From: Candidatus Nanopelagicales bacterium
Lineage (GTDB): Bacteria; Actinomycetota; Actinomycetes; S36-B12
Length of the DNA stretch: 64,000 bases
Direction: 5' to 3'
Assembly (NCBI GenBank): GCA_017857175.1
Contig: JAFMDS010000002.1
Coordinates: forward strand, 58,704-122,703
Positions 46,594 to 63,272 of the stretch are shown here, in pieces. A program made the position numbers and the translations under genes. Numbering within the stretch: position 1 is the stretch's first letter; every line of letters begins with the position of its first letter. The notes beneath the pieces were generated by a model. That model searched no databases, had not been told where the DNA came from, and saw nothing but the letters and a program-made list of their open reading frames with translations.

Positions 46594-46627
46594 TCCATTA
46601 AGTCGACGACGAAGGGGATAGTGAAGC

Positions 46628-47533: not shown

Positions 47534-47535
47534 TC

Positions 47536-49332
47536 ATGGGTTACTACGCGCAAATTGCAATCAATATCTTGATCCTCATGTCTCTCGCAGTCTCATTGAA
47601 CCTGCTGCTCGGGTATGCAGGAAGAGTTTCGATGGCGCAGGCGGTGCTTTTCGGAATCGGGGCTTTCACGGCCGCGCGCTTAGTTCTGCCCAAGGCAGAC
47701 GCTTCGAGTGCAGTGGCTGCATCTGGTATCAACTATGGTTTGGGATGGCACTGGCTTCCTGCGACTGTTGTGGCCATCGGTGTCACCTTTGTGGCCGCGC
47801 TCATAATTTCTCTGCCAGCGATTCGCCTCATTAAAGGTGAATACCTGATCCTGTTGACGTTGGCTTTCCAACTTGGTGGTGAGCAGATTCTTAGTGTGTG
47901 GGAGGGCTTCACAGGTGGCCCCTTTGGTGTAGCAGGCATTCCACCGCTGAAAATTGGTGACACGTCATTCTCCACCCTTCGTGAATCTGGAACGATCCTG
48001 TACGCAGGCCTAATGCTGGTTATCACGATTATTGTTATCTTGATTTCCTGGGGCCTTGGCGAATCGCCATTTGGTCGACTCTTGAAAACGATTCGTGGTA
48101 ACGAGACGCTTCTTCCGAGTCTAGGCAAGAATCCAATCCGACCGGAATTGCTCACCTTTGGAATCACAGCTGCAATTGCTGGAGGGATTGGAGCCTTTTT
48201 TGCCTATTCGCAGGGAGCGATGGTTCCTGGCAATTTCAGTTTGGACCTGTCAATTCTTGTCATTTCAGTTGTCGTACTCGGTGGGACAGGCAACATCGCG
48301 GGAACAATTGTTGGAGCGATCATTCTCGGGGGACTCGAACCAATTTTGCGGCAGGTCTTGGGTGATGAAGGGATTCCTTGGCAGCGAGTCATTTACGGTG
48401 CGGCACTAGTCCTCATGATGATCATTCGACCTGCTGGTCTCATTCCTGAAGGTGCATTAACTCGGATCCGAAAGCCCAAGGTTGCAAAGTCATTCGACCA
48501 GAATTTAAATGGAGCTCAAGGAATTCAGTTCGGTGACTTCACAAATAAGAGATCTAGTTCGCCGGAGGAGAATCTGAGTGAAGTCTTAGTCATCGAAGAC
48601 ATCAAAAAGTCTTTCGGGGGGTTGAGCGCCGTAGGTGGGGCGAGTTTCAGTTTGCGCAAGGGTCAAATCACTGCGCTCATTGGACCTAATGGCGCCGGTA
48701 AGACCACCATATTCAACATGATCACTGGAACTTTGAGTTGTGATTCAGGTTCCATCAAACTTCGTGGTCGAGAATTGACAGGCATGCCCACGTACGAAAT
48801 TGAACGACTTGGAATCGCGAGATCATTTCAAGATGTGCGACTCAACGAAAGCATGACAGTGCTGGACAATGTCGCGGTAGCTGTCCCGAATCAGCCGGGT
48901 GAGAAAATATTCAATCTAATTCTTCACCCTCTGAAGAGCCGCAAGGCCGAGAAAAGTGTTAATCAGATTGCTCTTGATTGTCTGGCCGTGTTGGGAGTCG
49001 CGCAGACTGCACATGAACTGGTCAGAAATTTGTCCTATGGGGATCAAAAGTTGGTGGCAATTGCGAGGCTATTGGCAACGGACTGTGACGTATTGTTGCT
49101 CGACGAACCGACGAGCGGTGTTGATCCAGGGAGTGTGAATCTCGTAATCGAGGGAGTATCGAAGTTGCGAGACCTAGGAAAGACCGTCTGTCTAGTTGAG
49201 CATTCAGTTCACTTTGTGGAACGCCTTGCCGATCACGCCATATTTCTCGACCAGGGCGTAGTTATTGCTGAAGGTACGGTGGCTGAACTCGTCTCGTCAG
49301 CCGAACTAACAGAACTCTATTTCGGGAATTAG
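47536..49332 (+). CDS. fused LivM-type permease and LivG-type ATPase
   Basis: Residues 1 to about 305 form a polytopic LivM-like permease (GYAGRVSMAQAVLFGIGAF, RLLKTIRGNE). A roughly 45-aa polar linker follows. The C-terminal ABC domain has GPNGAGKTT, LSYGDQKLVAIAR and LLLDEPTSGVD, all in one uninterrupted 598-codon frame. Confidence 0.88.
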   Translation: MGYYAQIAINILILMSLAVSLNLLLGYAGRVSMAQAVLFGIGAFTAARLVLPKADASSAVAASGINYGLGWHWLPATVVAIGVTFVAALIISLPAIRLIKGEYLILLTLAFQLGGEQILSVWEGFTGGPFGVAGIPPLKIGDTSFSTLRESGTILYAGLMLVITIIVILISWGLGESPFGRLLKTIRGNETLLPSLGKNPIRPELLTFGITAAIAGGIGAFFAYSQGAMVPGNFSLDLSILVISVVVLGGTGNIAGTIVGAIILGGLEPILRQVLGDEGIPWQRVIYGAALVLMMIIRPAGLIPEGALTRIRKPKVAKSFDQNLNGAQGIQFGDFTNKRSSSPEENLSEVLVIEDIKKSFGGLSAVGGASFSLRKGQITALIGPNGAGKTTIFNMITGTLSCDSGSIKLRGRELTGMPTYEIERLGIARSFQDVRLNESMTVLDNVAVAVPNQPGEKIFNLILHPLKSRKAEKSVNQIALDCLAVLGVAQTAHELVRNLSYGDQKLVAIARLLATDCDVLLLDEPTSGVDPGSVNLVIEGVSKLRDLGKTVCLVEHSVHFVERLADHAIFLDQGVVIAEGTVAELVSSAELTELYFGN

Positions 49333-49340
49333 GCGGCATC

Positions 49341-50063
49341 ATGACAATTGATACTCAAAGAAACGGCCTGGTAGTTCAAAATCTTTACGCGGGCTACGGT
49401 AAGCGCGACGTCATTTTCGACGTCAATATAAATGTATTGCCCGGAGAAATTGTTGGAGTCGTGGGTCATAATGGAGCGGGTAAATCGACTTTACTAAAGA
49501 GCATCTTTCGGTCCATGCCCATAGCGCGGGGTAATATCAATTTCGGGCAGCTCGATTTGACCAAAAAGACAAGTCCTTATGTGGTCGCGCAGGGCATTAG
49601 CTTCACGCCAGCCGAACTGCCTATTTTCCGCGACTTAACGGTGCAAGAGAATTTAGAGCTCGGAGCATTCTCAATAAAAAAACGTGCAACTTATTGGGAG
49701 CGTCTACACGAGGTGACCGAAATATTTCCCGTACTGGGAGAACGACTTAAGGAGACTGCGGGACGATTTTCAGGTGGTCAACAGCGACAACTTTCAATCG
49801 GAATGGCACTGATGACAAATCCAAAATTGATGATGTTGGATGAACCCTCACTGGGAATTTCACCCTCGGTTGTGCAAAAGACATTTCAGGTGATCCGCGA
49901 TCTCGCTAAAGAGCGTGATTCAAGCGTGCTGATCGTCGAACAAAATGTGAAAGCAATGACTCAAATTGCAGATCGGATCTACGTACTAAGAAACGGTGAA
50001 GTTGTCCTGGAGGAGACTCGCGAGGAAGCTTTATCTCGAGACGACTGGTGGGACCTGTTTTAA
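49341..50063 (+). CDS. LivF-type ABC transporter ATP-binding protein
   Basis: Walker A (GHNGAGKST), the signature FSGGQQRQLSIG and Walker B (MMLDEPSLGISP) are present. The length is 240 aa. Confidence 0.9.
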   Translation: MTIDTQRNGLVVQNLYAGYGKRDVIFDVNINVLPGEIVGVVGHNGAGKSTLLKSIFRSMPIARGNINFGQLDLTKKTSPYVVAQGISFTPAELPIFRDLTVQENLELGAFSIKKRATYWERLHEVTEIFPVLGERLKETAGRFSGGQQRQLSIGMALMTNPKLMMLDEPSLGISPSVVQKTFQVIRDLAKERDSSVLIVEQNVKAMTQIADRIYVLRNGEVVLEETREEALSRDDWWDLF

Positions 50064-50064
50064 A

Positions 50065-50877
50065 ATGTCAAAACAGAAAAATATGTCGTGTCACGAAAGT
50101 GGAGTGAGTACCAATCCTGCGTTGGTTCTCCTACATTCTCTTTGGCTTAATCACCACCAGTTCGATTCCTTAATATTGATGTATTCTCAAAGTTTTCATA
50201 TTTTTGCCTTCGACATTTATGGCCATGGCGATTCGCCGCCAAATAGTCCCGAGATTGAAGACTTGGGGAAAATCGCAACTCAAGTTCTTGATCAACTTGC
50301 CGTTGCGGGCATTGAGACTTTCCACATTCTGGGGCAATCGATGGGTGCAGATATCGGAGTCAGAATGGCAATTCAAGCTCCTAATCGGGTTCAGTCCATG
50401 GTATTAATTGGCAGCAGTTGCACACCTGCAAACCCAAGTCGATTGGATGTCTCTTTTGAATGGATCAACGAATTGGCCATCCAGGGTTTTACTGCAGAAG
50501 ATCTCACACGAGCATCAACCATTCTCCTCGGCGAGACTACTCGAACGAGTCCTGAAAGTAACTCTCAAGCAGTATTCGTAGATCAATTGCTTGCCAGCGT
50601 GACGCGTGATGTCATTCCAACCATGCGTGGCGTCTTTGCTCGTGCCGGGGTGTGTGAAGAATTGGATTCAGTTCATGTGCCATCACTTGTTATATCGGGT
50701 AGTGAGGACCTCGCACGACCTGTAGATCAAGGCCGAGCACTGTCCGAATGTCTCAGAAATTCACGTTTCGTCGAGTTCGACAAATGCGGCCACACACCTA
50801 TAATTGAGGCCTTTGATAGGTGCATCACCGAGATAGATAGCTTTTGGGATCAGTACCAGGTGGTCTGTCATGACTGA
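50065..50877 (+). CDS. alpha/beta-fold hydrolase (enol-lactonase-like)
   Basis: The oxyanion region LLHSLWLN, the nucleophile elbow GQSMGA, the acid region ISGSEDLARP and the histidine CGHTP are present. The ATG at 50065 lies 2 bp after the livF stop. Confidence 0.8.
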   Translation: MSKQKNMSCHESGVSTNPALVLLHSLWLNHHQFDSLILMYSQSFHIFAFDIYGHGDSPPNSPEIEDLGKIATQVLDQLAVAGIETFHILGQSMGADIGVRMAIQAPNRVQSMVLIGSSCTPANPSRLDVSFEWINELAIQGFTAEDLTRASTILLGETTRTSPESNSQAVFVDQLLASVTRDVIPTMRGVFARAGVCEELDSVHVPSLVISGSEDLARPVDQGRALSECLRNSRFVEFDKCGHTPIIEAFDRCITEIDSFWDQYQVVCHD

Positions 50878-52567
50878 CGCTGCCACGGGCTCGTCACGCG
50901 GACTTACTAGTTACGGCGATGCGGGTTTCAGTAAATTCCTCCGCGGAGTCTTTCTCGCAAGCGCTGGGTGGGATGCCCAGGATCTTGAACGGCCAATAAT
51001 AGGAATTGCGAATACGGAATCAGATTTCAACCCATGTCACCGATTGTCCCCGGCAATTATTGAGAATATAAAAAGAGGGGTCCTCGAGGCAGGTGGTGTT
51101 CCTTTTGTATTTCCAACGATAAGTCTGGGTGAAACGCTTCTCAATCCAACATCAATGTATTTGCGAAACCTCATGGCGATCGAAACTGAGGAAATGATTA
51201 AGGCGCAACCGATGGATGCAGTGGTTCTAGTCGGTGGTTGCGATAAGACTGTTCCTGCTCAAGCAATGGCTGCGATTTCCGCAGATATTCCAGCGCTTCT
51301 CGAAGTCGTTGGTCCGATGGTGACCAGTACATGGCGCGGCAATCGCTTGGGTGCCTGCACAGATTGCCGAAGGATGTGGGCAAGTCATCGCGCTGGAGAT
51401 TTAGATCAAGATGAAATTGCTGAAGTTGGAAATGCATTAGCCACCACAGGTGGAACATGCATGGTCATGGGAACTGCCTCCACAATGGCAAGTCTGATGG
51501 AGACAATAGGTTTAATGCTTCCTGGAGGGGCAACACCACCATCTCCAACTGGTGATCGGTTGCGACATGCAACGAAAACAGGGCGGGCCGCAGTGGCCCT
51601 AGCGCTCGAGGGGCGCGGACCATCGACTTTCCTATCGCGGGATTCTTTCATGAATGCTGTGACCGTGTTGGCTGCGATCGGTGGATCAACCAATGCAATC
51701 GTCCACCTACTTGCAATTGCATCGCGCGCTCAGATTGAACTGACATTAGATGACATGGAACAGACCTTCAAGAAGACACCTCTGCTCCTCGACCTTAAGC
51801 CATCGGGGGTTGGTTACATGGAGGATTTCGACCGCGCAGGCGGGGTACCTCAATTGTTGCTGCGATTGAAACCGTTACTAAAGCTTGACGCAATGGGTCC
51901 TTTGGGTCTAACGCTGGGTGAGCAATTGGAGACTGTGACATTAAAGGAGCACGACACAACTATTCGCGCGCTGGACAACCCATTACTTCCTGCACCAACA
52001 CTCGCCGTCGTTCGCGGATCATTGGCTCCCGAAGGTGCGGTGATCAAGGTCTCGGCAGCATCACCTGATCTGCTTCGCCATAAAGGACCTGCCAGAGTAT
52101 TTGACAGTGCCCAAGAGGCTTCGCTTGTGTTGAGCGATCCGGAAATCGCATTTTCGCCAGATGACGTTTTAGTCTTGAGAAACTCTGGTCCAGTCGCCGC
52201 CGGGATGCCAGAAGCAGGATCCATGGCCATTCCTAAGTCTTTGGCCATAAAGGGTGTGAAAGACATCCTCCGAGTCTCAGACGCAAGGATGAGCGGCACC
52301 TCATATGGAACGGTGGTGCTTCATTGCTCGCCTGAGAGCGTGGTTGGTGGACCGATCGGTTTAGTTCAAGATGGAGACATTATTGAGCTGGATATTGATA
52401 ATAGGTCTCTGAATTTACTGGTGAGCGAAGAAGAACTTGCCGTTCGAAGCAGTCAATTAGATGTGACACCCATGGATGACATTCGTATGAGCATTTGGCG
52501 ACGCATTTTTACCAAGCATGTTACTCAGGCTCACCTTGGAGTTGACATTGATATGGGGCAACCATGA
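50870..52567 (+). CDS. IlvD/Edd family dehydratase (sugar-acid / dihydroxy-acid dehydratase type)
   Basis: The three Fe-S cluster Cys contexts are present (DFNPCH, GGCDKTVPA, GGTCMVMGTASTM). So is the catalytic Ser region SDARMSGTSYG. The length is 565 aa, with an 8-bp overlap on the hydrolase gene. Confidence 0.9.
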   Translation: MTDAATGSSRGLTSYGDAGFSKFLRGVFLASAGWDAQDLERPIIGIANTESDFNPCHRLSPAIIENIKRGVLEAGGVPFVFPTISLGETLLNPTSMYLRNLMAIETEEMIKAQPMDAVVLVGGCDKTVPAQAMAAISADIPALLEVVGPMVTSTWRGNRLGACTDCRRMWASHRAGDLDQDEIAEVGNALATTGGTCMVMGTASTMASLMETIGLMLPGGATPPSPTGDRLRHATKTGRAAVALALEGRGPSTFLSRDSFMNAVTVLAAIGGSTNAIVHLLAIASRAQIELTLDDMEQTFKKTPLLLDLKPSGVGYMEDFDRAGGVPQLLLRLKPLLKLDAMGPLGLTLGEQLETVTLKEHDTTIRALDNPLLPAPTLAVVRGSLAPEGAVIKVSAASPDLLRHKGPARVFDSAQEASLVLSDPEIAFSPDDVLVLRNSGPVAAGMPEAGSMAIPKSLAIKGVKDILRVSDARMSGTSYGTVVLHCSPESVVGGPIGLVQDGDIIELDIDNRSLNLLVSEEELAVRSSQLDVTPMDDIRMSIWRRIFTKHVTQAHLGVDIDMGQP

Positions 52568-53703
52568 TTTCAATCGCCGCAGTAGGAATTGAACTTCCTT
52601 TGGAGCGAGTGACGGGGATTTCAACTCGACTAATCCGAGGGCGCCACTTCTTGCTCGTTAGGTTGCACGACAATTCGACGGGTGTGGAAGGCGTTGGCTA
52701 CACATATGTGGGCAGTCATGGTTCACGTACGGCGGTCACGATGTTCGAGGAGGTATTTGCCCCTCTATTAAATGACATGATCTCGGAAAGCATTACTAAT
52801 ATCTGGGAAAAACTCTACCTTGAAACGCTGTTGATAGGTCGAGGTGGTCTTGCCATGCGTGTGCTGTCTGCAATAGATATCGCCTTGTGGGATCTACGGA
52901 CACGCGAAATGAATGTGTCACTTTCCGTCGCTCTAGGGGGGCGAGCCCAAGGTGTGCCCGCCTACGCTTCTGGTGGGTATTTTTATAGCGGAGTTGACCC
53001 AATCGAATCGATAACGACCGAGATGAATCAGAATGTAAAAAGTGGCTTTACCAAGCATAAAATCAAAGTTGGCGGATATGGCGTTCTCCAGGATGCTGAG
53101 CGGGTTGCAGCGGCACTTGAAGTATTGCCATTGCATCATGAACTTGCGCTCGATGCTAACAATGCATACGGGAACAGCTATGTCGCGGCAAAAGCTTTGG
53201 AGAAGTTTGAGTTGGCTGCGGGGGACAGGGGGCTCTGGTGGTTTGAAGAGCCACTAGGGCCCAGCGATGTCGAGGGGCATTCATTCCTCAAATCTAGGTT
53301 TGCTACACCCATTGCATCAGGCGAGATTCTGCAGACTCGCCATGAGGTTCGACCCTACATTGATGCTCGGGCTGTTGACTTTCTCCAAATTGATGCTGGT
53401 GTAATTGGAGGAATTACTGAGTTTGTCAAAGTAGCTCAAGCAGCCAGCGTTGCCCAGATGGCGATTGCACCTCACTGGCATGCGAATATCCATGGTCATC
53501 TGGCAACGGCGCTCGAAAATTGCGTGATCGTCGAGCATTTTATGTTGGAAAAGGATATATATAACTTTGAAATCTTGCTCACGCCAGACAGTCGAATGAA
53601 ATTTTCAAACGGAGAGGTTTTAGTCGAAAACACTACGGGTCTCGGGCTTACCTTCGATGAAGATAAAATCAATATGTTCAAGGTAGCTGACTTCAAATGG
53701 TGA
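52564..53703 (+). CDS. enolase-superfamily enzyme (mandelate racemase / acid-sugar dehydratase subgroup)
   Basis: The KxK motif (HKIKVGG) is present. The metal-ligand contexts are ALDANNAY, WFEEP and IASGE. The strand 6/7 pair reads FLQIDAG and APHWH. The length is 379 aa, with a 4-bp ATGA overlap on the upstream gene. Confidence 0.88.
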   Translation: MISIAAVGIELPLERVTGISTRLIRGRHFLLVRLHDNSTGVEGVGYTYVGSHGSRTAVTMFEEVFAPLLNDMISESITNIWEKLYLETLLIGRGGLAMRVLSAIDIALWDLRTREMNVSLSVALGGRAQGVPAYASGGYFYSGVDPIESITTEMNQNVKSGFTKHKIKVGGYGVLQDAERVAAALEVLPLHHELALDANNAYGNSYVAAKALEKFELAAGDRGLWWFEEPLGPSDVEGHSFLKSRFATPIASGEILQTRHEVRPYIDARAVDFLQIDAGVIGGITEFVKVAQAASVAQMAIAPHWHANIHGHLATALENCVIVEHFMLEKDIYNFEILLTPDSRMKFSNGEVLVENTTGLGLTFDEDKINMFKVADFKW

Positions 53704-54626
53704 ATATTGTGAACGGTCAGCCCAGGATTTTTGCCGGACCAAGCCCGTGGCCCGATTTAATCGAGCTGGTCAAGTCTCATGGTGTGCTCGTAACAAGCCC
53801 GCATGAAGCGGATATAATTCTGTGGTTTGGACGAGATCCCAATGAGATTGTTGGACAGTGGTCAGACAATCTAAAGTGGTTACAACTGCCCGATGCTGGT
53901 ATTGAAAAATGGCTAGTACCGCAGATCCTCGATGGTGAATTTCAAACCACAAGCGCCGCGGGCGCCTACGGTTCGCAAGTTGCCGAACATGCGTTGGCCA
54001 TGATCTTGGCCGGCCACCACGAAATCGTAAGTTCTGCCCGCTCAATGTCATGGGATCCGAAGTCCCTAAATGTTCGGACCTTAAGGGGATCAACCGTTCT
54101 AATAGTCGGAGCGGGAGGTATTGGTAGACATTTAGCGACACTCTTAATGGCCCTAGGTTGCGAGATCGTGTTTGGAACTCGTGAAACAGGACGGCTTGCA
54201 GGCGACTGGTCAGAGATCTCCTTTGATCAGCTTCAAGATCAACTTCATCGTTTCGACGTGGTCGTCCTCGCTTGCCCATCCACAGACAAGACAAGAGGCA
54301 TGGTGGATGCTGATTTTCTCGATCATATGGACAGGGATGCAAGCCTTATCAATATTTCAAGGGGCGATCTTGTAGTAACGGATGATTTGGTCTCCGCATT
54401 AACAGAACGATCCATTCGTTTCGCTGCTCTAGATGTAACGGATCCTGAACCATTACCACCTTCTCATGTGCTTTTTGGCTTGCCCAATTGTCTCGTTACA
54501 CCACACGTGGCAAATCCACCTACGGCGAAGATGGAAGGGTTTGTAAATTTTGCCAGCGAGAATCTTGAACTATTCATGCAGGGAAAAAACTTAAACGGAT
54601 TGATAAGCAGCAGTAAAGGTTATTGA
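53697..54626 (+). CDS. D-isomer-specific 2-hydroxyacid dehydrogenase family protein
   Basis: The NAD-binding motif is VLIVGAGGIGRHLA. The catalytic contexts NISRGDLV, ALDVTDPEP and TPHVAN supply the Arg/Glu/His triad. The length is 309 aa. Confidence 0.85.
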   Translation: MVNIVNGQPRIFAGPSPWPDLIELVKSHGVLVTSPHEADIILWFGRDPNEIVGQWSDNLKWLQLPDAGIEKWLVPQILDGEFQTTSAAGAYGSQVAEHALAMILAGHHEIVSSARSMSWDPKSLNVRTLRGSTVLIVGAGGIGRHLATLLMALGCEIVFGTRETGRLAGDWSEISFDQLQDQLHRFDVVVLACPSTDKTRGMVDADFLDHMDRDASLINISRGDLVVTDDLVSALTERSIRFAALDVTDPEPLPPSHVLFGLPNCLVTPHVANPPTAKMEGFVNFASENLELFMQGKNLNGLISSSKGY

Positions 54627-54668: not shown

Positions 54669-56312
54669 ATGTCAAATGCGCACCTGATACAGAAGCCTCG
54701 TCCCGAGACAGCAGACGTATTGGTTATTGGTGCTGGCGCTTCGGGCTCCGTGGCCGTTCGCGAGCTCGTGCAGCAAGGCTTCAGCGTCGTCTGTCTAGAG
54801 CAAGGTGACTGGACCCCTGCGACCGAATTTACTGGTGATAAGCCTGAATGGGAACTAAGTCGACAAAAGCAATGGCACCCCAATCCAAACGTCCGACAAA
54901 ATCCATCAGACTACAGCGTGAATACGGACGATTCGGATGTCAATCCATTGATGTTCAATGCCGTTGGGGGCAGCACCATTCTGTACGCTGCACATTGGTG
55001 TAGGGCGCTGCCGTCTGACTTTCAGGTACGTACCCAAGATGGGGTGGCAGATGACTGGCCCTTCTCCTATGAGGATCTACTACCTTTCTACCAAGAGATT
55101 GAGCGAGACATGGCGGTCTCAGGTCTTGCTGGAAACACTGCCTACCCTGATGGGGGAGGCTATCCGCTACCCCCGCTCCCAATCGGTAAATATGGTCACA
55201 AAGCTGCCTCAGGCATGGACAAGCTCGGCTGGCATTGGTGGCCTGGCAACAACTCCATTGCTTCGAAGGCCGTAGGTCATCGAGCTCAGTGTCTGCGATA
55301 CGGCGCTTGTTTGACGGGCTGTCCTGCAGGTGCAAAGGCGAGCACTGACCTCACACACTGGCCATATGCGTTGGAACTTGGTGCCCATCTTGTTACTGGA
55401 GCGCGTGTTAGCGAAGTCACCGTCAATGCAGAAGGTCTTGCAACGGGAGCTAACTATGTCGATCGGGAGGGTAATGAGCAGCATCAGAAGGCAAAAGTCG
55501 TAGTGCTAGCAGGTAACGGAATCGGCACCCCTCGTCTTTTGTTACTTTCGAAGTCCAGTGCCCATCCCGATGGCTTGGCGAACTCGTCAGGGCTTGTTGG
55601 AAAGCGTCTCATGATGCATCCATATGCGGCAGTTGTTGGCACGTACGAAGACGAACTTGAAAGTTGGCTTGGCCCAGCTGGGCAGTCGATTGAGTCGATG
55701 GAGTTTTACGAGACTGATGCGAGCAGGGGGTTTGTTCGTGGGGCGAAATGGAATGTTATGCCAACAGGTGGACCACTGGGAATGCGCGCTGGATACGGTG
55801 GGAGACCTATCGAGGAGTCTTTCGGAGTCAATTTTCATCGTAATGTAAAGACCGTTCTTGGCAAGTCCTTCGAGTGGGGCATCATTGCGGAGGATCTGCC
55901 TGACGAAAACAATCAAATTGTTTTGGACAGTATTAATGTGGATTCAGACGGCATTCCTATCCCCGAACTGCACTACAAGAGTTCTGAAAACACTTCTAGG
56001 CTCATCGACTTCCACGTGGATCGAGCAGTTGAAGCGCACGAGGCTGCCGGGGCCACAACAATTTCCGTTACGAAGTTGATGCGCGATTGTGGTTGGCACC
56101 TTCTTGGAACAGCCCGAATGGGAGATGATAGTTCCACTTCGGTAGTTGATCAATTCGGTCGTGCCCACGATTGCCCCAATCTTTATGTGATCGATGGAAG
56201 CGTTTTTGTTACTTCATCTGGAGTTAATCCAACTGCCACCATTATGGCGAATGCTCTCAGGTCCATGCGACATCTCGCAGAGACACATACAGATCAGAAG
56301 ACCGCAAACTAG
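54669..56312 (+). CDS. GMC-family FAD oxidoreductase, Fe-S-type catalytic subunit (paralogue 1)
   Basis: The FAD motif is DVLVIGAGASGSVAVREL..CLEQG. The GMC C-terminus reads HLLGTARMG..VVDQFGRAH..NLYVIDGSVFVTSSGVNPTATIMA. The Cys motif C-x5-C-x3-CP (CLRYGACLTGCP) lies at nt 55290-55322. Confidence 0.88.
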   Translation: MSNAHLIQKPRPETADVLVIGAGASGSVAVRELVQQGFSVVCLEQGDWTPATEFTGDKPEWELSRQKQWHPNPNVRQNPSDYSVNTDDSDVNPLMFNAVGGSTILYAAHWCRALPSDFQVRTQDGVADDWPFSYEDLLPFYQEIERDMAVSGLAGNTAYPDGGGYPLPPLPIGKYGHKAASGMDKLGWHWWPGNNSIASKAVGHRAQCLRYGACLTGCPAGAKASTDLTHWPYALELGAHLVTGARVSEVTVNAEGLATGANYVDREGNEQHQKAKVVVLAGNGIGTPRLLLLSKSSAHPDGLANSSGLVGKRLMMHPYAAVVGTYEDELESWLGPAGQSIESMEFYETDASRGFVRGAKWNVMPTGGPLGMRAGYGGRPIEESFGVNFHRNVKTVLGKSFEWGIIAEDLPDENNQIVLDSINVDSDGIPIPELHYKSSENTSRLIDFHVDRAVEAHEAAGATTISVTKLMRDCGWHLLGTARMGDDSSTSVVDQFGRAHDCPNLYVIDGSVFVTSSGVNPTATIMANALRSMRHLAETHTDQKTAN

Positions 56313-56318
56313 GAAGGA

Positions 56319-56735
56319 ATGCTGATGCTTAATCCAGTACAAATAGAAACCTACAGCGCACTGGCAAATGAACTTATTCCTGCAGCAGAAGGAATGCCAA
56401 GCGCGTCTGAAGCTGATGTTCCAACCACCTGGATAAACACCGCCTTGGGGTATAGGCCGGATCTCGTCGAAGCATTTCTCAGATCGATTGACTCGTGCCG
56501 AGGAGAGGTTCCTGCTCGCGCACTCGAGAACCTGAATGCCAATGACACTGAAGCATTCGACGCGCTTGGCGTTTTAACTTCAGGTGCATACTTTCTCAAC
56601 CCTGGTGTCAAGGAATTGCTTGGTTATCCAGGACAGTTGCCGGTGCCGGCCCATGATGACACCGAAACCTATTTGGAGATTTTGGAACGCGTCGTCGATC
56701 GGGGTCCCATTTACCGGGCCTCAGTGAGCACCTGA
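56319..56735 (+). CDS. small protein resembling the gluconate 2-dehydrogenase subunit 3 family (gamma-like), no signal peptide
   Basis: The 138-aa protein has an N-terminal LANELIPAAEGMPSASEA segment. This matches the typical 'IP..g.PgAse' start of that family as I remember it. It has no RR motif and no hydrophobic signal. It lies 6 bp after GMC paralogue 1. Confidence 0.6.
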   Translation: MLMLNPVQIETYSALANELIPAAEGMPSASEADVPTTWINTALGYRPDLVEAFLRSIDSCRGEVPARALENLNANDTEAFDALGVLTSGAYFLNPGVKELLGYPGQLPVPAHDDTETYLEILERVVDRGPIYRASVST

Positions 56736-56742
56736 GGTCATC

Positions 56743-57207
56743 ATGGAGTTTCCACATCCATCCCGACCGGGTTATTACGGACTGGAATTCAGCAACGAAT
56801 TGTCATCAGCTATTGCGTTGGCGGCTGATGTACTCATTCCAGGTAACGAACATTACCCAAGCGCCTCATCTGCTCGCGTTGTCAATTTCATCGAAGAACG
56901 AAGCAGCGATCAGGATCGAGAAAACCTGAAACGAGTCATCGAGCTCCTTGGACCTGATTTAAGTTCAGAGGAGGCAATGCACGCACTCGAAATGGAGCAT
57001 GCGGAACTCTTTATTTGGTTTCGGGACTTTATCTACCATGCATATTATGCTTCCAATTTGGTTCTTGATGCGCTTTCCAAGAGGGGATACGCCTATCACG
57101 GTGCACCTCAACCGCTCGGGTATAGAACCGAGGTTAATCAGGCACAACCTAGGACGACGCGAGGATTTCATTTCAGTAGTGCGGAGGTAACTAAAAATCA
57201 TGGCTAA
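56743..57207 (+). CDS. second small gamma-like protein (gluconate 2-dehydrogenase subunit 3-like), no signal peptide
   Basis: The 154-aa protein has the segment LAADVLIPGNEHYPSASSA, analogous to its upstream neighbour. An 8-bp overlap joins it to the following GMC gene. It contains no Cys and no twin-arginine motif. Confidence 0.55.
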   Translation: MEFPHPSRPGYYGLEFSNELSSAIALAADVLIPGNEHYPSASSARVVNFIEERSSDQDRENLKRVIELLGPDLSSEEAMHALEMEHAELFIWFRDFIYHAYYASNLVLDALSKRGYAYHGAPQPLGYRTEVNQAQPRTTRGFHFSSAEVTKNHG

Positions 57208-58843
57208 TTCCGAAGAAGTCGATGTAATAGTTGTTGGAGCCGGAATGGCTGGGCTGAAGATCTCCCAGGTTCTTACAAATGCAGGTGCACGAGTCGTTTG
57301 TCTCGAACAAGGTCCAACTGTTGCTGCCGTGGATCATCCAACATTCACATCCGATTGGGAATTCTCAATTGGAAGAGAATGGGCTTTCAACCCCAATATT
57401 CGCGGTCTGGAGTACGACTTCCCAGTCGAAACAAACGGGACGTTTCAGCCTTACCTGTACAACGCGGTGGGGGGCAGCACTAATCATTACTCGGCTTTCT
57501 GGCACAGGCTTAAGCCAGTCGACTTTCTTAAAGGCACTGAGCACGGACTTGAGGGCGCTATCGATTGGCCCATCACCTATGAAGATCTTGCACAGTACTA
57601 CGACCTTACAGATAACGAGATAGGAATATCAGGCCTCAAAGGAGATAGAGCCTATCCCGATCGCAGCGATGCTCATCGTATGCCGTTAGTCGGCCATGGA
57701 AAATACGCCGCGATTATTGCCGAGGGCCTTGAAAAATTGAATGTGCATTGGTGGCCTGCAGATAACGCGATTCTTACTCAGCGTGTAGGGGATCGGCTGC
57801 CCTGTAATTCATGCGGCATGTGCAACCTGGGATGTCCAAGGGGTTCACTTGGTACAGCTCAGGATGTCTACCTGTCATCTGCGCTCGCCCGTGGTCTGGA
57901 CTTGAGGCCAGGGTCCCGAGTCTCTTCGGTTACAACGGACACGCAAGGACGTGCATCCGGTGTAATTTATACGGATATTGATACAGGCACAGAGCACAAG
58001 ATAACTGCACAAGTCGTTGTTGTATCTGCAAATGGCATTGGCACGCCACGTTTGCTTCTGATGTCTGAGGGATCGAAGCATCCCCAGGGTCTGGGTAACA
58101 ATAATGATCAGGTGGGCAGGTACTTCATGACACATGGCTACCGCTTAGCTGATATGTGGTTTGATCACTCCACAGAACACTACAAAGGGCCTTTTGGTGC
58201 AGGACCTTACGTGCAAGAGTGGTATGACACGGACCCGAATCATGATTTTGTAAATGGTGTGACGATCACATTTGGCGGCGCCTGGGGTCCTGCAGTCAGC
58301 GCATTGGGTGCAACCACGCGCACGCGGCCCGCGGCGTGGGGTAGCAAACATCATAACGAATTCGAGGAAAGATTTGACCGTCATATTTTTTGCGCCATTC
58401 AGGCGGACGATCTGCCAGTTGCCACGAATCGGGTGACTCTCGACCCCATTGTGAAAGATGCTGGTGGTCTGCCCGCGGCTAATGTGCATTACGACCTGCA
58501 TGAAAACACTAGGAAACTACTTGAATTTGGTAGTGACCGTCTACAGGAGATCGCAAATGCTGCAGGTGCAATCGGACTTGATCTTCAGCCAATGGACGAG
58601 CGATTCTCCCAGCCTGGATGGCATCTAATGGGGACGGCGCGAATGAGTGCAGATCCAGAAAATGGTGTGACGGACAAATGGAATCGTGTATGGGACACCC
58701 CTGGTTTGGTGGTTTGCGATGGTAGCTCCATGACCAGCGGGGGCGCGGGCAATCCAACATCGACAATTGTCACCTTAGCGGCTCGATGCGCGGACAATCT
58801 TGTCAAGAACATGGGGCAACCAGTTGAGGCCGCAGGTGAGTAA
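57200..58843 (+). CDS. GMC-family FAD oxidoreductase, Fe-S-type catalytic subunit (paralogue 2)
   Basis: The FAD motif is DVIVVGAGMAGLKISQVL..CLEQG. The GMC C-terminus reads HLMGTARM..NRVWDTPGLVVCDGSSMTSGGAGNPTSTIV. The Cys motif C-x2-C-x2-C-x3-CP (CNSCGMCNLGCP) lies at nt 57803-57835. At 547 aa it is exactly the same length as paralogue 1. Confidence 0.88.
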   Translation: MANSEEVDVIVVGAGMAGLKISQVLTNAGARVVCLEQGPTVAAVDHPTFTSDWEFSIGREWAFNPNIRGLEYDFPVETNGTFQPYLYNAVGGSTNHYSAFWHRLKPVDFLKGTEHGLEGAIDWPITYEDLAQYYDLTDNEIGISGLKGDRAYPDRSDAHRMPLVGHGKYAAIIAEGLEKLNVHWWPADNAILTQRVGDRLPCNSCGMCNLGCPRGSLGTAQDVYLSSALARGLDLRPGSRVSSVTTDTQGRASGVIYTDIDTGTEHKITAQVVVVSANGIGTPRLLLMSEGSKHPQGLGNNNDQVGRYFMTHGYRLADMWFDHSTEHYKGPFGAGPYVQEWYDTDPNHDFVNGVTITFGGAWGPAVSALGATTRTRPAAWGSKHHNEFEERFDRHIFCAIQADDLPVATNRVTLDPIVKDAGGLPAANVHYDLHENTRKLLEFGSDRLQEIANAAGAIGLDLQPMDERFSQPGWHLMGTARMSADPENGVTDKWNRVWDTPGLVVCDGSSMTSGGAGNPTSTIVTLAARCADNLVKNMGQPVEAAGE

Positions 58844-58868
58844 TTTTTCATCCCAGAACAACTCAAGT

Positions 58869-60071
58869 ATGTGGGACTTAGCCATCGTAGGGGGTGGCGT
58901 TGTCGGGCTTGGCATTGCAAAAGCATGGAAAGCGCGGAACCCTTCGGACAAAATCATTGTCCTCGATAAAGAGACCCACGTGGGCGCACATGCTTCGGGT
59001 CGCAACAGCGGCGTGCTCCATGCTGGCTTCTACTATGCGCCAGACTCACTCAAGGCGCGATTGACCAAAGATGGGAACGCGATGTTGCGGGCCTTTTGCT
59101 ATGAGCACGGAGTTCCGATTCGTGAAACAGGAAAAGTTGTTGTTACACAGTCTCATGCAGAGATACCGGCCTTGGAAGAGTTGTACCGCCGAGGTCTTCT
59201 CAATGACTGTGAGCTCGAGATTGTCGATGAAAATCAACTTCGGGAGCTCGAACCGCTGGCACGCACCGCAGGTAAAGCAATTTGGTCGCCTTTGACTGCC
59301 GTGTCAAGCCCCGTAGGTGTAACGAAAAAGTTGGCCGAGGTTGTTGTCGATCAAGGCTGCGAATTGCGATTAGGTGTATCAGTCGTTACTGGACGAGCAG
59401 GGGAACTAACTCTTAGTACAGGTGAGGTCATTCGCGCAGGTCATATTGTCAATGCAGCGGGACTCTATGCCGACAAAGTAGCTCACTGGTTCGATGTTGG
59501 CCTAGATTACAAAATGTTACCGTTCAAAGGGCTATACCTTTATAGCGATTGGCCAGACGGACGCCTGACTAGGCAAGTTTATCCGGTTCCAAATCCAAAG
59601 AATCCATTTTTGGGTGTACACGTGACCATTACCGTTGAAGGCAGAGTGAAAATCGGCCCAACGGCAATCCCAGCGTTAAAGCGCGAGGACTACGGCAAAC
59701 CTTATGCTTTGTTACCGAAAGAGTTGCTCGAGATTTCACGACTCTATCCCAGATTCCTGACCAGTCCACACCACAATGTCGCCGAATTAATCGCATCGGA
59801 GCTTCCAAAGTACAACAAAACATACTTGGTCAATCAAGCCAAGCCACTTGTTCCCTCGATAAATAAAAAGCATTTTAAGGAGCGAGGGAAGCCTGGGGTC
59901 CGTGCTCAATTGCTACATGTTCCGTCGAAGCAATTAGTAATGGACTTTCTCGTCATATCGGGGGAGAGTTCAACACACATGATGAACGCCGTTTCCCCTG
60001 CTTGGACAAGTTCCCTTGCCGTCGGTGAGTACACAGTTCAGAAAATACATGATGGCGGTTTCCCCGCATGA
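58869..60071 (+). CDS. lhgO: FAD-dependent L-2-hydroxyglutarate oxidase/dehydrogenase family protein (LhgO-like)
   Basis: The FAD motif is DLAIVGGGVVGLGIA. Matches to remembered E. coli LhgO include SGRNSGVLHAGFYYAPDSLKA, PFKGLYL, YPVPNPKNPFLGVHVT..G.VKIGPTAIPALKREDY, GVRAQ and NAVSPAWTSS. The ATG at 58869 is preferred over the ORF-track start at 58800. Confidence 0.82.
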   Translation: MWDLAIVGGGVVGLGIAKAWKARNPSDKIIVLDKETHVGAHASGRNSGVLHAGFYYAPDSLKARLTKDGNAMLRAFCYEHGVPIRETGKVVVTQSHAEIPALEELYRRGLLNDCELEIVDENQLRELEPLARTAGKAIWSPLTAVSSPVGVTKKLAEVVVDQGCELRLGVSVVTGRAGELTLSTGEVIRAGHIVNAAGLYADKVAHWFDVGLDYKMLPFKGLYLYSDWPDGRLTRQVYPVPNPKNPFLGVHVTITVEGRVKIGPTAIPALKREDYGKPYALLPKELLEISRLYPRFLTSPHHNVAELIASELPKYNKTYLVNQAKPLVPSINKKHFKERGKPGVRAQLLHVPSKQLVMDFLVISGESSTHMMNAVSPAWTSSLAVGEYTVQKIHDGGFPA

Positions 60072-60092
60072 AATCTAGAGAGGTAGTAGTCC

Positions 60093-60905
60093 ATGACTGA
60101 ATCAATAAACGCATTGAGCGAGGCGTTAAAGAATGCTTCAGTGTTTGATCTTGAACAACAGAGATTTATTGGGGCACCAATTTATCCCCACCATTGGCCC
60201 GGATTTGTCTACACGCTGCATCGCCATCACGTTGATGTGCCGGGACAGGCTCGAACGAGCGCATCAGGAACGGTAACTATGCAGGAACACAGCGGAACGC
60301 ACATTGATGCGCTGTGTCATCAAGCACTTGAAATGGAGATGTACGGGGGAATCAAGGTCAATTCTTCAAACCAGACGCCAAGAGGGTTTCTTGATCTCGG
60401 TGTGGAGACAATTGAACCTATTATTCGCCCAGCAGTTCTCCTCGATGTCGCTAGGAGCAAGGGCGTTGCACGGTTGCCCAAGGGCTACTTGATCACTCGG
60501 CAAGATCTTGAAGATGCAGCCGAATCCCAGGGTATAGCAATCATGAAGGGTTCCTGTGTCTTGATTCGAACTGGTTGGGGGGCAACTTTCAGCGATACAG
60601 ATGATTATCTGTCGGCTGCTGGGATATCGGCTGACGGTGCACTTTGGCTAGCTGAGCAAGGACCATTTCTCTGTGGCGCAGATAACGTGGCATTTGACTA
60701 TCCTGACAATGTCGACATCGAGTTGGGCTCTTTGCCATGCCACGTGGTTTTGATCATTCAAAATGGAATCTACATTGTTGAAAACCTGCTGCTGGAGGAA
60801 CTAGCTGCAGCGGAGTGCTGGGAGTTCACCTTTGTCTGCCTGCCACTCAAAATGCAAGGTGTGACGGGTTCTCCCGTGCGACCTTTAGCGATTAAAACAA
60901 ATTAA
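60093..60905 (+). CDS. cyclase-family metal-dependent hydrolase (kynurenine formamidase / isatin hydrolase fold)
   Basis: The signature HxGTHxDxxxH is present (HSGTHIDALCH). The length is 270 aa, and LIRTGWG is typical of the family. Confidence 0.8.
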   Translation: MTESINALSEALKNASVFDLEQQRFIGAPIYPHHWPGFVYTLHRHHVDVPGQARTSASGTVTMQEHSGTHIDALCHQALEMEMYGGIKVNSSNQTPRGFLDLGVETIEPIIRPAVLLDVARSKGVARLPKGYLITRQDLEDAAESQGIAIMKGSCVLIRTGWGATFSDTDDYLSAAGISADGALWLAEQGPFLCGADNVAFDYPDNVDIELGSLPCHVVLIIQNGIYIVENLLLEELAAAECWEFTFVCLPLKMQGVTGSPVRPLAIKTN

Positions 60906-60966
60906 TAGATCTGAAGCAATACAAAACAACCACAAGGCAGTACACAACTATCAAAAGGAGAAGATC

Positions 60967-61386
60967 ATGGAAGCAATCACTCTGGCAGCGGTAAAGCGCG
61001 CACTTGAAAGTGCCGAGAATAAAGCAAATGAAATTGGATCCCCTTCATCCATCGCGATTATGGATTCAGGTCGCGAACTACTTGGATTCGTTCGCATGGA
61101 TGGGGCGCTTCTTGCAAGCGCCGAGATCTCACAGGCCAAGGCCTATACCTCGCGATCCATGAACGCACCGACTTCCGCACTTGGAGAGTATGTGCAACCG
61201 GGCGCACCGTTGTTTGGCCTAGAGTCGGCACATTTCAAGGCTGGTCGTGCGCTGATCACGTTCGGCGGCGGTGTTCCAGTGACGATAAACGGCGAAGTTG
61301 TCGGAGCTGTCGGGGTAGCCGGCGGAAGCCCTGATCAAGATGAACAAATCGCATTGGCTGCAGCCGTAGTTCTTGAGGGCGCATGA
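60967..61386 (+). CDS. GlcG/HbpS-like (DUF336) heme-binding/degrading-domain protein
   Basis: The 139-aa protein has the family pattern ..AIMDSGRELLGFVRMDGA...S...S..KAYT.....T......GGVP...NGEVVGAVGVAGGSPDQDEQIA. AAGGAG lies upstream of the ATG. Confidence 0.72.
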   Translation: MEAITLAAVKRALESAENKANEIGSPSSIAIMDSGRELLGFVRMDGALLASAEISQAKAYTSRSMNAPTSALGEYVQPGAPLFGLESAHFKAGRALITFGGGVPVTINGEVVGAVGVAGGSPDQDEQIALAAAVVLEGA

Positions 61387-62156
61387 TGAAGGATTTGGCA
61401 ACACTTGAAGGCAAGAAGATCTTGATGACCGGTGGAGCGGGCAATATTGGCCGGGCATCTGCGCTGTTGTTAGCCGAAAAAGGAGCTACCATCGCAATTG
61501 GTGATCTCGATCTCGCAGGAACACAAGAAACTGTCGAGATGATTGAAAGTGCTGGTGGTAAAGCGAAGGCATTCCAGCTTGATGTCCGCAGCGAGGCAGA
61601 AGTAGCAAACTTTGTCACTCAGGCAGCGAGTTACCTCGGCGGCGTTGTTGACGGTGTGTTCTTAAACGCTGGGCTTCAGAGGTCTGGTCGGGTAGATGAG
61701 TTCGACAGCGACGATTGGGATGCGCTCTTTGATGTCAATCCGCGTCACTGCTTCTACGTGACTAAACACGTTGTTCCGATACTTAAGGCCCAAAATGGGG
61801 GAGCGATCGTGATGACTGCCTCCCTCGCTGGGGTTAAGGGGGGCCCAGGAATGACCGCATACTCCGCTTCAAAAGGGGCAATTATTGGATTTGGCAAATC
61901 GCTTGCTGCAGAAATGGCACCGTTCGATGTTCGCGTGAATGTACTGTGTCCAGGATGGATTGATACGGCATTTAATGAACCCGCAATTAATTTCATGGGG
62001 GGAGTCGATGCCCATGCCGAGGCCATTAAGGCAATTGTGCCATTGCGCAGGCAAGGATCTAATGAGGAAATTGCTCAAGCTGTGTTGTTCTTGATATCAG
62101 ATGCTTCCTCATATATGACAGGACAGTCAATGATTATTGATGGTGGTGTCTATTAG
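61383..62156 (+). CDS. short-chain dehydrogenase/reductase (classical SDR)
   Basis: Motifs TGGAGNIGRA, NAG, S..YSASKGA (the catalytic YxxxK) and PGWIDT are present. A 4-bp overlap joins it to the glcG-like gene. Confidence 0.9.
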   Translation: MMKDLATLEGKKILMTGGAGNIGRASALLLAEKGATIAIGDLDLAGTQETVEMIESAGGKAKAFQLDVRSEAEVANFVTQAASYLGGVVDGVFLNAGLQRSGRVDEFDSDDWDALFDVNPRHCFYVTKHVVPILKAQNGGAIVMTASLAGVKGGPGMTAYSASKGAIIGFGKSLAAEMAPFDVRVNVLCPGWIDTAFNEPAINFMGGVDAHAEAIKAIVPLRRQGSNEEIAQAVLFLISDASSYMTGQSMIIDGGVY

Positions 62157-62231
62157 TTCTCGAACCAGATTCATATCTCGAAGAGAGCAGGATTAGGCTT
62201 CCCAACTCATGGTCTATGCGGGGAGGGCACA

Positions 62232-63272
62232 GTGACATCGGAGTTAGGTTCTACATCAAGGGTTACTATGGCGACTGTCGCAGAAGTGGCAGGTGTTTCC
62301 GTTGCTTCTGTATCGAATGCCCTGAATGAAAGAGTTGGCCTGAGCCCTGAGGTTCGGTCCCGCATTTTAGCCGTCGCTGACGGACTGGGTTATCGAAGGA
62401 ACACTTTGGCGCAGGAGCTGCGAATCGGTCGTTCGCGCACAGTTGGGCTTAGTGTGGTGGATCTGGCGAATCCCTTTTACGCTGATCTGTCACAAGGCGT
62501 AGTAAAGACGGCTGGAGAACATGACTATGACGTCTTTCTTTCTAGTGTAGGGCCCGAGAGTGAGTCACTGAAGGAGGTAGTGGACGGCTTCCTAGATCGA
62601 AGACTTGGCGGTTTGCTGTTTACGTCATTGACGAATGCGGACGCAGAATTGCTCCGGAGATTGCAGAAGCACGCCATCCCTTTTGTCAAACTCGTGCGCG
62701 ATGTTCAAGGCGTGGTAGCTGACTGGGTTGGCATAGACGACTACTCAGGTGGAGTAGCTCTGGGCGATCACATTGCAGCAACTGGAAGAAAAACGGTGGC
62801 CTGCTTGGGTGGACCCTCTGACTCCAATGCTTCAGCGGCCCGCGTAAATGGTATTCGGATGGGCTTGGCAAGAAAGGGCATCAATTTGATTAATGAAGCT
62901 CAGCCAAATTTACATGGAACACCAACTCGCATGTCAGGGTACAACCGGGCATTGAGTCTGCTGCAGGAGAACAAGCGTATCGAGTGCATTATTGGGGGGA
63001 ATGACGTAATTGCCATTGGCATTCTTGACGCCTGCAGAGATAATGGATTCTCAGTACCTGAAGATATCGCTGTCGCCGGGTTCGATAACATGACGTTTTC
63101 GTCCGCAGGCCCATTGGAATTGACCACGGTTGATGTTCCCCGCGAACAAATTGGAGCAATTGGCATGAAATTCCTCATCGAGAGAATGGATGGCTTCACT
63201 GGACCCCCACGACGCAAATTTTTGCCGTTTGACCTTGCCATTCGTTCCTCAACTAGCCCAAAAAGTGACTGA
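62232..63272 (+). CDS. LacI-family transcriptional regulator
   Basis: The N-terminal HTH reads TMATVAEVAGVSVASVSNALN. A periplasmic-binding-protein-like effector domain follows (VGLSVVDLANPFY.., IIGGNDVIAIGIL, VAGFDN). Confidence 0.9.
   Translation: MTSELGSTSRVTMATVAEVAGVSVASVSNALNERVGLSPEVRSRILAVADGLGYRRNTLAQELRIGRSRTVGLSVVDLANPFYADLSQGVVKTAGEHDYDVFLSSVGPESESLKEVVDGFLDRRLGGLLFTSLTNADAELLRRLQKHAIPFVKLVRDVQGVVADWVGIDDYSGGVALGDHIAATGRKTVACLGGPSDSNASAARVNGIRMGLARKGINLINEAQPNLHGTPTRMSGYNRALSLLQENKRIECIIGGNDVIAIGILDACRDNGFSVPEDIAVAGFDNMTFSSAGPLELTTVDVPREQIGAIGMKFLIERMDGFTGPPRRKFLPFDLAIRSSTSPKSD

Follow-up and report, generated by a model that had tools for sequence, protein, structure and literature searches.

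Periplasmic dehydrogenases that carry FAD, an iron-sulfur (Fe-S) cluster and a cytochrome underlie the biosensors that measure glucose and fructose by direct electron transfer, and their diversity is still described as very limited in a 2026 review. The closest solved systems are BcGDH, the FAD-dependent glucose dehydrogenase (FADGDH) of Burkholderia with gamma, alpha and beta subunits (6a2u, 8grj), and the fructose dehydrogenase (FDH) of Gluconobacter (7w2j), which combine a GMC flavoprotein catalytic subunit of about 545 aa, a small all-helical partner of the Gluconate_2-dh3 family with a twin-arginine translocation (Tat) signal, and a three-haem cytochrome c subunit. In BcGDH, Cys212, Cys218 and Cys222 are the three ligands of the 3Fe-4S cluster, Cys213 is disulfide-bonded to Cys152 of the gamma subunit, and His105 is the covalent FAD attachment site (PMC6719666). 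Here we analysed a four-gene block in a 64-kb stretch of a Candidatus Nanopelagicales contig (JAFMDS010000002.1, positions 58,704 to 122,703 of the forward strand; hereafter the window), in which two paralogous GMC flavoproteins of 547 aa, GMC1 and GMC2, flank two small open reading frames (ORFs) of 138 and 154 aa, small1 and small2, exactly as the initial annotation of the block had given them (Table 1). We consider it probable, as the explanation that best covers the block as a whole, that its products form two separate alcohol dehydrogenases, GMC1·small1 and small2·GMC2, each heterodimeric, cytoplasmic and free of cytochrome.

Like BcGDH and FDH, the window proteins comprise a GMC flavoprotein catalytic subunit of this size with a C-x5-C-x3-C-P loop aligned on the 3Fe-4S ligands, and a small all-helical partner putatively assigned to the Gluconate_2-dh3 family; GMC2 keeps the covalent-FAD histidine of BcGDH and GMC1 does not. 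Unlike BcGDH and FDH, the small subunits have no Tat signal, there is no three-haem cytochrome c subunit, the loop of GMC2 holds a fourth Cys, and the setting is cytoplasmic, in a monoderm host. The Cys of the BcGDH inter-subunit disulfide is also missing in GMC1 and GMC2, and the identity of the two large subunits to BcGDH and FDH is only about 30-35%.

Previous studies have also described actinobacterial enzymes in which, as here, a signal-less GMC protein is encoded next to a small protein, namely MpdB (Mycolicibacterium austroafricanum and Actinomycetospora chiangmaiensis) and IbcH/IbcI. In A. chiangmaiensis, the small subunit of 2-methyl-1,2-propanediol (MPD) dehydrogenase and MpdB were both induced 23-33-fold on 2-hydroxyisobutyrate (PMC7176365). 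In Mycolicibacterium sp. ELW1, which degrades isobutylene, plasmid pELW1-1 carries the GMC gene ibcH and then ibcI, the same large-then-small order as GMC1 and small1. Both genes are strongly induced on isobutylene, ibcH is assigned to the conversion of MPD to 2-hydroxyisobutyraldehyde, ibcI is described as a hypothetical protein of unknown function, and IbcH shares 41% identity with MpdB (PMC13188929). Neither report discusses the Fe-S loop, the gamma-like small protein or the electron acceptor (PMC7176365, PMC13188929).

We found that GMC1 shares 51% identity (515 bits) and the same Cys triad with IbcH, and that small1 shares 38% identity with IbcI (E 5e-23), while several GMC2-type homologues (P0157, P0188, P0201, P0205 and others) carry the JGI label "2-methyl-1,2-propanediol dehydrogenase". 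At 51% identity GMC1 and IbcH are not orthologues, so the substrate here is probably other than MPD. The mpdB and ibcH genes lie beside genes for aldehyde dehydrogenase and alkene monooxygenase or 2-hydroxyisobutyrate metabolism, and not beside acid-sugar dehydratases as in the window, whose catabolic island has neither an aldehyde dehydrogenase nor a monooxygenase gene. Since MpdB and IbcH/IbcI belong to the branch, the cytoplasmic two-subunit enzymes already have physiologically assigned members, and the cytoplasmic version of the family suggested in the initial annotation has a precedent in these mycobacterial diol dehydrogenases.

Large subunits and small subunits

Both GMC1 and GMC2 contain GMC_oxred_N and GMC_oxred_C (Pfam), and the two proteins are 38% identical. 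Among solved structures (HMMER against PDB), the best matches of GMC1 were 6a2u_B (E 3.9e-56) and 7w2j_A (E 6e-55), those of GMC2 were the FDH large subunit 8xcm_A (E 9e-46) and 6a2u_B (E 3e-42), and the remaining solved GMC enzymes ranked far lower (E > 1e-18). Judged by these matches, GMC1 and GMC2 are members of the Fe-S-type GMC branch and relatives of the FADGDH alpha subunit and the FDH large subunit.

The C-x5-C-x3-C-P cluster that had been read in both large subunits was borne out by translation. In the HMMER alignment to 6a2u_B, Cys208, Cys214 and Cys218 of GMC1 fall on Cys212, Cys218 and Cys222, and the Cys motif of GMC2 aligns likewise with the fructose dehydrogenase large subunit, so that the proposed match to the 3Fe-4S ligands of FADGDH alpha holds column for column with the published ligands. 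The Cys triad was kept in 90 of 90 GMC homologues drawn from related loci, as was the catalytic GWH.xGT motif (90/90). At the position of BcGDH His105, GMC1 has Leu105 and GMC2 has His96 (GGSTNHY); at the position of BcGDH Cys213, GMC1 has Leu209 and GMC2 has Asn203.

The loop of GMC2 has an extra central Cys205, giving C-x2-C-x2-C-x3-C-P, a four-Cys motif shared by all seven orthologues (7/7) and, at identities as low as 46%, by 115 of the 120 best GMC2 homologues. Because the triad is kept throughout the sampled homologues and the four-Cys form in nearly all of those of GMC2, the Cys spacing does not occur by chance. In the iron-sulfur subunits SdhB and FrdB, a C-x5-C-x3-C-P motif accompanies a 3Fe-4S cluster, whereas 4Fe-4S clusters have C-x2-C-x2-C-x3-C-P; GMC1 and GMC2 share this contrast of motifs, and introduction of the central Cys into E. 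coli FrdB reportedly turns the 3Fe cluster into a 4Fe cluster. However, the SdhB/FrdB fold is unrelated to that of GMC proteins and, unlike in the ferredoxin arrangement, the three Cys of the single BcGDH motif all bind one cluster; the analogy is therefore a lead and not a test. By this analogy, GMC2-type enzymes may hold a 4Fe-4S cluster, with Cys205 as the candidate fourth ligand.

The small subunits are marked by short conserved motifs, which are LIPaAEGMPSAS, RPDL, GYPGQ and RGPIYR in small1 and FPHPSRPG, LIPG..YPSA and YHGAPQPLGY in small2, and in pairwise comparison the two proteins have only the LIP…PSAS motif in common. Alignment of the two families by hhalign (A1, 35 small1 sequences; A3, 24 small2 sequences) extended over 126 columns with 97.6% probability (E 3e-12), and therefore small1 and small2 are homologous. 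PF13618 (Gluconate_2-dh3) is matched by 18 of the 35 small1-family and 18 of the 24 small2-family members, several of which exceed its gathering score (25.6-28.2 bits vs 23.4). One of these, a signal-less small subunit from Sulfitobacter, is above the threshold with most of the model covered and matches the small1 profile at 97% probability. Since such homologues pass the Pfam cut-off, small1 and small2 are probably divergent members of Gluconate_2-dh3, a placement supported at the family level by transitive homology. The small1 family is large, with about 1,400 clusters at 50% identity in an exhaustive search.

AlphaFold2 modelled small1 at pLDDT 87.9 and small2 at pLDDT 82.4. The most conserved C-terminal motifs (GYPGQ…RGPIYR and YHGAPQPLGY) form low-confidence tails in both models, as would be expected for segments that fold only on a partner. 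As to Cys content, small2 has none and small1 only Cys60.

Gene modules and cellular location

The genome scan for related loci was based on a 12-sequence alignment. A GMC1-type gene followed by a small1-type gene was found in nearly all of the 72 related loci (about 70), and such pairs occur in Actinomycetota, Alpha- and Betaproteobacteria, Verrucomicrobiota, Planctomycetota and Chloroflexota. In the same way, small2 lies directly upstream of a GMC2-type gene in seven of seven loci, and in one of them (L039) both genes have moved jointly to the other strand. Among the other Nanopelagicales loci, the nearest (L009, L010, L012 and L015) have clusters that differ only in lacking the small2-GMC2 pair, so that GMC1-small1 runs directly into the LhgO-like gene and, after it, the cyclase, GlcG-like and SDR genes. 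The block therefore consists of two independent modules, GMC1→small1 and small2→GMC2, and the initial view of large-small-small-large as one unit is abandoned, as the nearest relatives lack the second module and L039 has it on the other strand.

The full large-small-small-large order appears again in Nocardioides, Aeromicrobium, Frankiales and Geodermatophilus, beside the same IlvD/EDD and MR/MLE dehydratases; Nocardioides aquiterrae and Geodermatophilus sp. DSM 44513 are two such carriers. Two modules per locus were counted in 25 of 71 loci with variable orders: large-small-large-small in Alphaproteobacteria, and a small2-type→GMC2-type pair beside a second GMC gene in Aeromicrobium and Pseudonocardia, where the second GMC gene of Pseudonocardia likewise has a PF13618 small protein. 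Paired paralogous enzymes are thus a recurrent theme, and the two may act in succession, on different substrates or together. The suggested analogy of the two paralogues to the successive steps from gluconate to 2-ketogluconate and 2,5-diketogluconate was not supported.

The pairing of large and small proteins is also seen in gene fusions. A 697-aa protein of an uncultured Actinomycetes metagenome-assembled genome (MAG; L066:7980-10073) joins an N-terminal small1-like domain to a complete GMC enzyme, and three representatives of 50%-identity clusters (P0343, P0304 and P0303) are truncated forms of the same small-GMC fusion. In another protein (P0289, 313 aa), the small1-like domain is fused to a GlcG/HbpS-like domain (PF03928, 104 bits), which is 32% identical to the GlcG-like protein encoded in the window (60967-61386). 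Of 71 loci, 19 had a GlcG-like gene in the neighbourhood of the GMC-small genes, and the GlcG-like protein may thus belong to the system as another component.

Within the block, the genes are separated by 6 nt (GMC1-small1) and 7 nt (small1-small2), and small2 and GMC2 overlap by 8 nt. A GGAAGGA ribosome-binding site lies within the 6-nt gap ahead of small1. GMC1 and small1 share a reading frame with only TAG GAA GGA between them (window 54669-56735), and read-through of the GMC1 stop codon would yield a large-small fusion. Two variants were seen in other contigs. One with an identical GMC1 (L005:11632-12077, from JGI 3300018415, corresponding to window 56300-56745) has a TCG→TAG nonsense codon at codon 57 of small1 and a few nearby substitutions, and another (L006) has the 2-hydroxyacid dehydrogenase gene in two pieces; these may be population-level decay or assembly errors.

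Each small ORF opens at the first start codon 3' of an in-frame stop, so neither small1 nor small2 has a hidden N-terminal signal. Neither a Tat-like motif nor a hydrophobic N-terminus was seen in the four proteins of the block, in 144 small-subunit homologues from a word-indexed search or in 149 representatives from the exhaustive search, and the N-termini of the 120 best GMC2 homologues begin straight with the FAD-binding fold. Further, no ORF with at least two CXXCH motifs was present in the 64-kb window or in 78 fetched loci (flanks up to 8-10 kb). The absence of a Tat or hydrophobic signal on the small subunits and of a cytochrome c gene, first read from this block, is thus true across homologous loci (about 290 small homologues; 78 loci), where orthologues with Tat signals and cytochrome c genes were looked for and neither was found, and a cytoplasmic, cytochrome-less version of the enzyme is supported across the family.

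The host is a monoderm Nanopelagicales actinobacterium. Its nearest genome, a Candidatus Nanopelagicales MAG, has a small1 of 93% identity and a cluster identical in make-up, aquatic metagenome contigs carry identical GMC1 proteins, and window positions 4-44752 show conserved actinobacterial housekeeping synteny, with uvrA (cut at the window start), uvrC, rapZ, whiA, gap-pgk-tpi, pgl-opcA-zwf-tal-tkt, ctaB, ctaA, the sufBDCSU Fe-S assembly operon, SURF1 and gcvP.

These results bear on whether an ordinary periplasmic or exported heterotrimer was misread, its Tat signal and cytochrome c having been missed or being encoded elsewhere. Clear homology links the large subunits with their periplasmic counterparts, and a relative on a Neorhizobium plasmid has a Tat-bearing small subunit. 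However, the small ORFs have no coding space 5' for a signal, neither the small homologues nor the best GMC2 homologues have a Tat motif, none of the 78 loci has a multi-haem ORF (0/78), the host is a monoderm actinobacterium and the inter-subunit disulfide Cys is missing, so that we regard this explanation as scarcely credible. The Neorhizobium protein (plasmid pNCHU2750b; L081:3474-3995) is a classical Tat-bearing small subunit (METTKRRLLIGSATATVMASSFAKVAMAG…); its neighbour is a GMC gene annotated as 2-keto-gluconate dehydrogenase, and no cytochrome c gene is annotated within 4 kb.

Electron acceptor and alternative explanations

In the mechanism that we propose, the FAD of the large subunit would oxidise a C-OH group of the substrate and pass the electrons to an Fe-S cluster on the Cys-rich loop. 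The small subunit, a signal-less relative of the "hitch-hiker" gamma subunits, would pack on the Cys loop and stabilise the large subunit, with no role in export. From the cluster, the electrons would go to a soluble or membrane-peripheral cytoplasmic acceptor, for which electron transfer flavoprotein (ETF) is the best candidate and menaquinone the main alternative; in actinobacteria, ETF would deliver them through EtfD to menaquinone.

Clustering of neighbouring ORFs placed Pfam-confirmed etfB-etfA genes in the fetched flanks of 22 of 72 loci, comprising 21 proteobacterial loci (within L019-L058) and L066. These genes are mostly directly upstream of the GMC-small genes and divergent from them; in L066 they are downstream of the fused gene on the same strand. 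In mycobacteria, electrons pass from ETF through EtfD to menaquinone (PMC13083937). Given the etfBA genes beside the GMC genes of relatives and this mycobacterial route, ETF is the best-supported candidate acceptor for the family, and we infer that it may also serve in this organism. The established ETF-dependent dehydrogenases, such as acyl-CoA dehydrogenases, are likewise cytoplasmic flavoproteins without a cofactor-linked membrane anchor; unlike for them, no GMC enzyme was found as an ETF client in the open-access literature searched.

Several observations weigh against reading the block as two cytoplasmic heterodimers, and the first group concerns the small proteins. In the window itself, small2 scores 19.3 bits on PF13618 (cut-off 23.4) and small1 has no match; the A1 and A3 profiles searched against PDB gave chance matches only (E > 0.2) and no gamma subunit; Foldseek of both models against PDB returned nothing at E < 0.8 and no solved gamma subunit; and hhalign of both small families against one Tat-bearing Neorhizobium gamma protein, which itself reaches 18 bits on PF13618, below the cut-off, was not significant. 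The assignment of the small ORFs to the gamma family made in the initial annotation therefore stands at the family level, through homologues, and not for the window proteins taken singly or for a solved gamma structure.

The same lack of a structural match leaves room for small ORFs whose products assist assembly or folding, or that are conserved neighbours with no relation to the enzymes, the large proteins being active alone, and IbcI, still called a hypothetical protein of unknown function, and the natural contig with a nonsense codon in small1 point the same way. We nevertheless judge this improbable. The adjacency is strict in about 70 loci of several phyla, with translational coupling, and there are independent small-GMC fusions, both full-length and partial. 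Moreover, IbcI and the small subunit of MPD dehydrogenase match their large subunits in abundance and induction (PMC13188929, PMC7176365). Two heterodimers, each with its own small subunit, remain our preferred explanation.

A second group concerns the acceptor, as the 64-kb window contains no etf gene and only one of the actinobacterial loci (L066) has etf genes nearby, so that the link is mainly proteobacterial. These two results would fit peripheral membrane dehydrogenases that reduce menaquinone directly, with ETF uninvolved in this organism. The gene directly downstream of GMC2 encodes an LhgO-like dehydrogenase, and both LhgO and bacterial GMC dehydrogenases of other kinds are thought to couple to quinone. 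On the other hand, the GMC proteins have no evident hydrophobic or amphipathic membrane segment (maximum 19-residue hydropathy <=1.6, within the FAD-binding fold), and the etfAB genes in the loci of 22 relatives, mostly adjacent and divergent, suggest that the family works with a soluble partner. We regard direct reduction of menaquinone as unlikely, yet as the most serious of the alternatives.

Next, binding of an Fe-S cluster by GMC1 and GMC2 is predicted from their sequences, and no cofactor measurement was found for any member of the branch in the literature searched. The large proteins might accordingly be GMC oxidases that use O2, or cluster-free enzymes in which the Cys loop has a structural, redox or regulatory role. 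The entry EC 1.1.1.400 (2-methyl-1,2-propanediol dehydrogenase, MpdB), which is given as NAD-dependent, would favour this; NAD dependence is unexpected in a GMC flavoprotein with an Fe-S loop. The strict retention of the three ligands in very distant homologues and their exact alignment with crystallographic ligands make an oxidase or a cluster-free enzyme very improbable.

Lastly, two features of the surrounding catabolic island count against the substrate proposed below. It does not hold the aldehyde dehydrogenase that adjoins MpdB and IbcH, and its transporter is LivK-type and not sugar-type, which makes the substrate class uncertain.

Catabolic island, substrate and significance

The catabolic island starts directly 3' of a rhodanese-family gene (43874-44752) and surrounds the four-gene block (Table 1). 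A promoter and terminator scan of 44.7-64 kb found fewer sites than in shuffled sequence and was uninformative.

Table 1. Coordinates of the four-gene block, its Cys motifs and the surrounding catabolic island in the window
Feature	Position	Strand	Basis
GMC1, large catalytic subunit, three-Cys type, 547 aa	54669-56312	+	Pfam, PDB sequence matches
small1, putative gamma-like small subunit paired with GMC1, 138 aa	56319-56735	+	Homologue alignment, gene pairing
small2, putative gamma-like small subunit paired with GMC2, 154 aa	56743-57207	+	Homologue alignment, gene pairing
GMC2, large catalytic subunit, four-Cys type, 547 aa	57200-58843	+	Pfam, FDH match, motif survey
Predicted Fe-S motif of GMC1, CLRYGACLTGCP (Cys208, Cys214, Cys218)	55290-55325	+	Translation, aligned to 6a2u_B
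Predicted Fe-S motif of GMC2, CNSCGMCNLGCP (Cys202, 205, 208, 212)	57803-57838	+	Translation, motif survey
LivK-type ABC importer: lipoprotein binding protein (45238-46593), two permeases (one ATPase-fused), second ATPase	45238-50063	+	Pfam of identical contigs, translations
Upstream catabolic genes, first an alpha/beta hydrolase	50065-54626	+	Pfam, NCBIfam
IlvD/EDD-family dehydratase	50870-52567	+	Pfam, NCBIfam
MR/MLE acid-sugar dehydratase	52564-53703	+	Pfam, NCBIfam
D-2-hydroxyacid dehydrogenase	53697-54626	+	Pfam, NCBIfam
Downstream genes, first an LhgO-like FAD dehydrogenase	58836-63272	+	Pfam, NCBIfam
PF04199 cyclase-family hydrolase	60093-60905	+	Pfam, NCBIfam
GlcG/HbpS-like protein	60967-61386	+	Pfam, NCBIfam
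SDR	61383-62156	+	Pfam, NCBIfam
LacI regulator	62232-63272	+	Pfam, NCBIfam

Related loci combine the same enzymes with sugar metabolism genes. A Sulfitobacter locus (L083) contains a sugar ABC transporter, small, GMC, aldehyde dehydrogenase, MR/MLE, KDGal kinase and aldolase genes, and a Pseudonocardia locus (L086) contains two modules, MR/MLE, SMP-30 lactonase, aldolase and PfkB kinase genes. Such neighbours suggest that the relatives oxidise an alcohol or hemiacetal and that acid-sugar chemistry follows, and the substrate is most likely a polyol, a sugar or a hydroxy acid. In the proposed pathway, the ABC importer of the LacI-controlled island would take up such a compound, the GMC enzymes would oxidise it, and the hydrolases, the two acid-sugar dehydratases and the further dehydrogenases would process the product.

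Beyond this locus, we tentatively propose, as a possible though doubtful generalisation, that signal-less GMC enzymes with a small partner form a distinct and widespread cytoplasmic FAD/Fe-S class in Actinomycetota, Proteobacteria, Verrucomicrobiota, Planctomycetota and Chloroflexota, in which electrons would flow from the Fe-S cluster to ETF, to ETF-QO or EtfD and to quinone, the GMC2-type members would hold a 4Fe-4S cluster, and a GlcG/HbpS-like protein would be a component. If this were true, these enzymes would contain a flavin → Fe-S → flavin relay and would be the first GMC clients of ETF.

The catalytic core of the periplasmic biosensor enzymes has a large cytoplasmic branch without export signal and without cytochrome, which is sizeable and biochemically unexplored within the open-access literature searched. 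MpdB and IbcH, the only ones to which a role is assigned, have so far passed for plain alcohol dehydrogenases, and the partner for a hypothetical protein; recognition of the Fe-S loop and of the gamma-like partner re-annotates these pollutant-degradation enzymes (MpdB and IbcH/IbcI). A role of ETF as acceptor and a possible natural 3Fe/4Fe contrast between GMC1 and GMC2 in one operon are now testable, and the enzymes offer small, soluble two-subunit scaffolds for bioelectrocatalysis. For the organism itself, the finding shows that the Nanopelagicales, abundant freshwater bacteria with streamlined genomes, have a further catabolic island that is so far uncharacterised.

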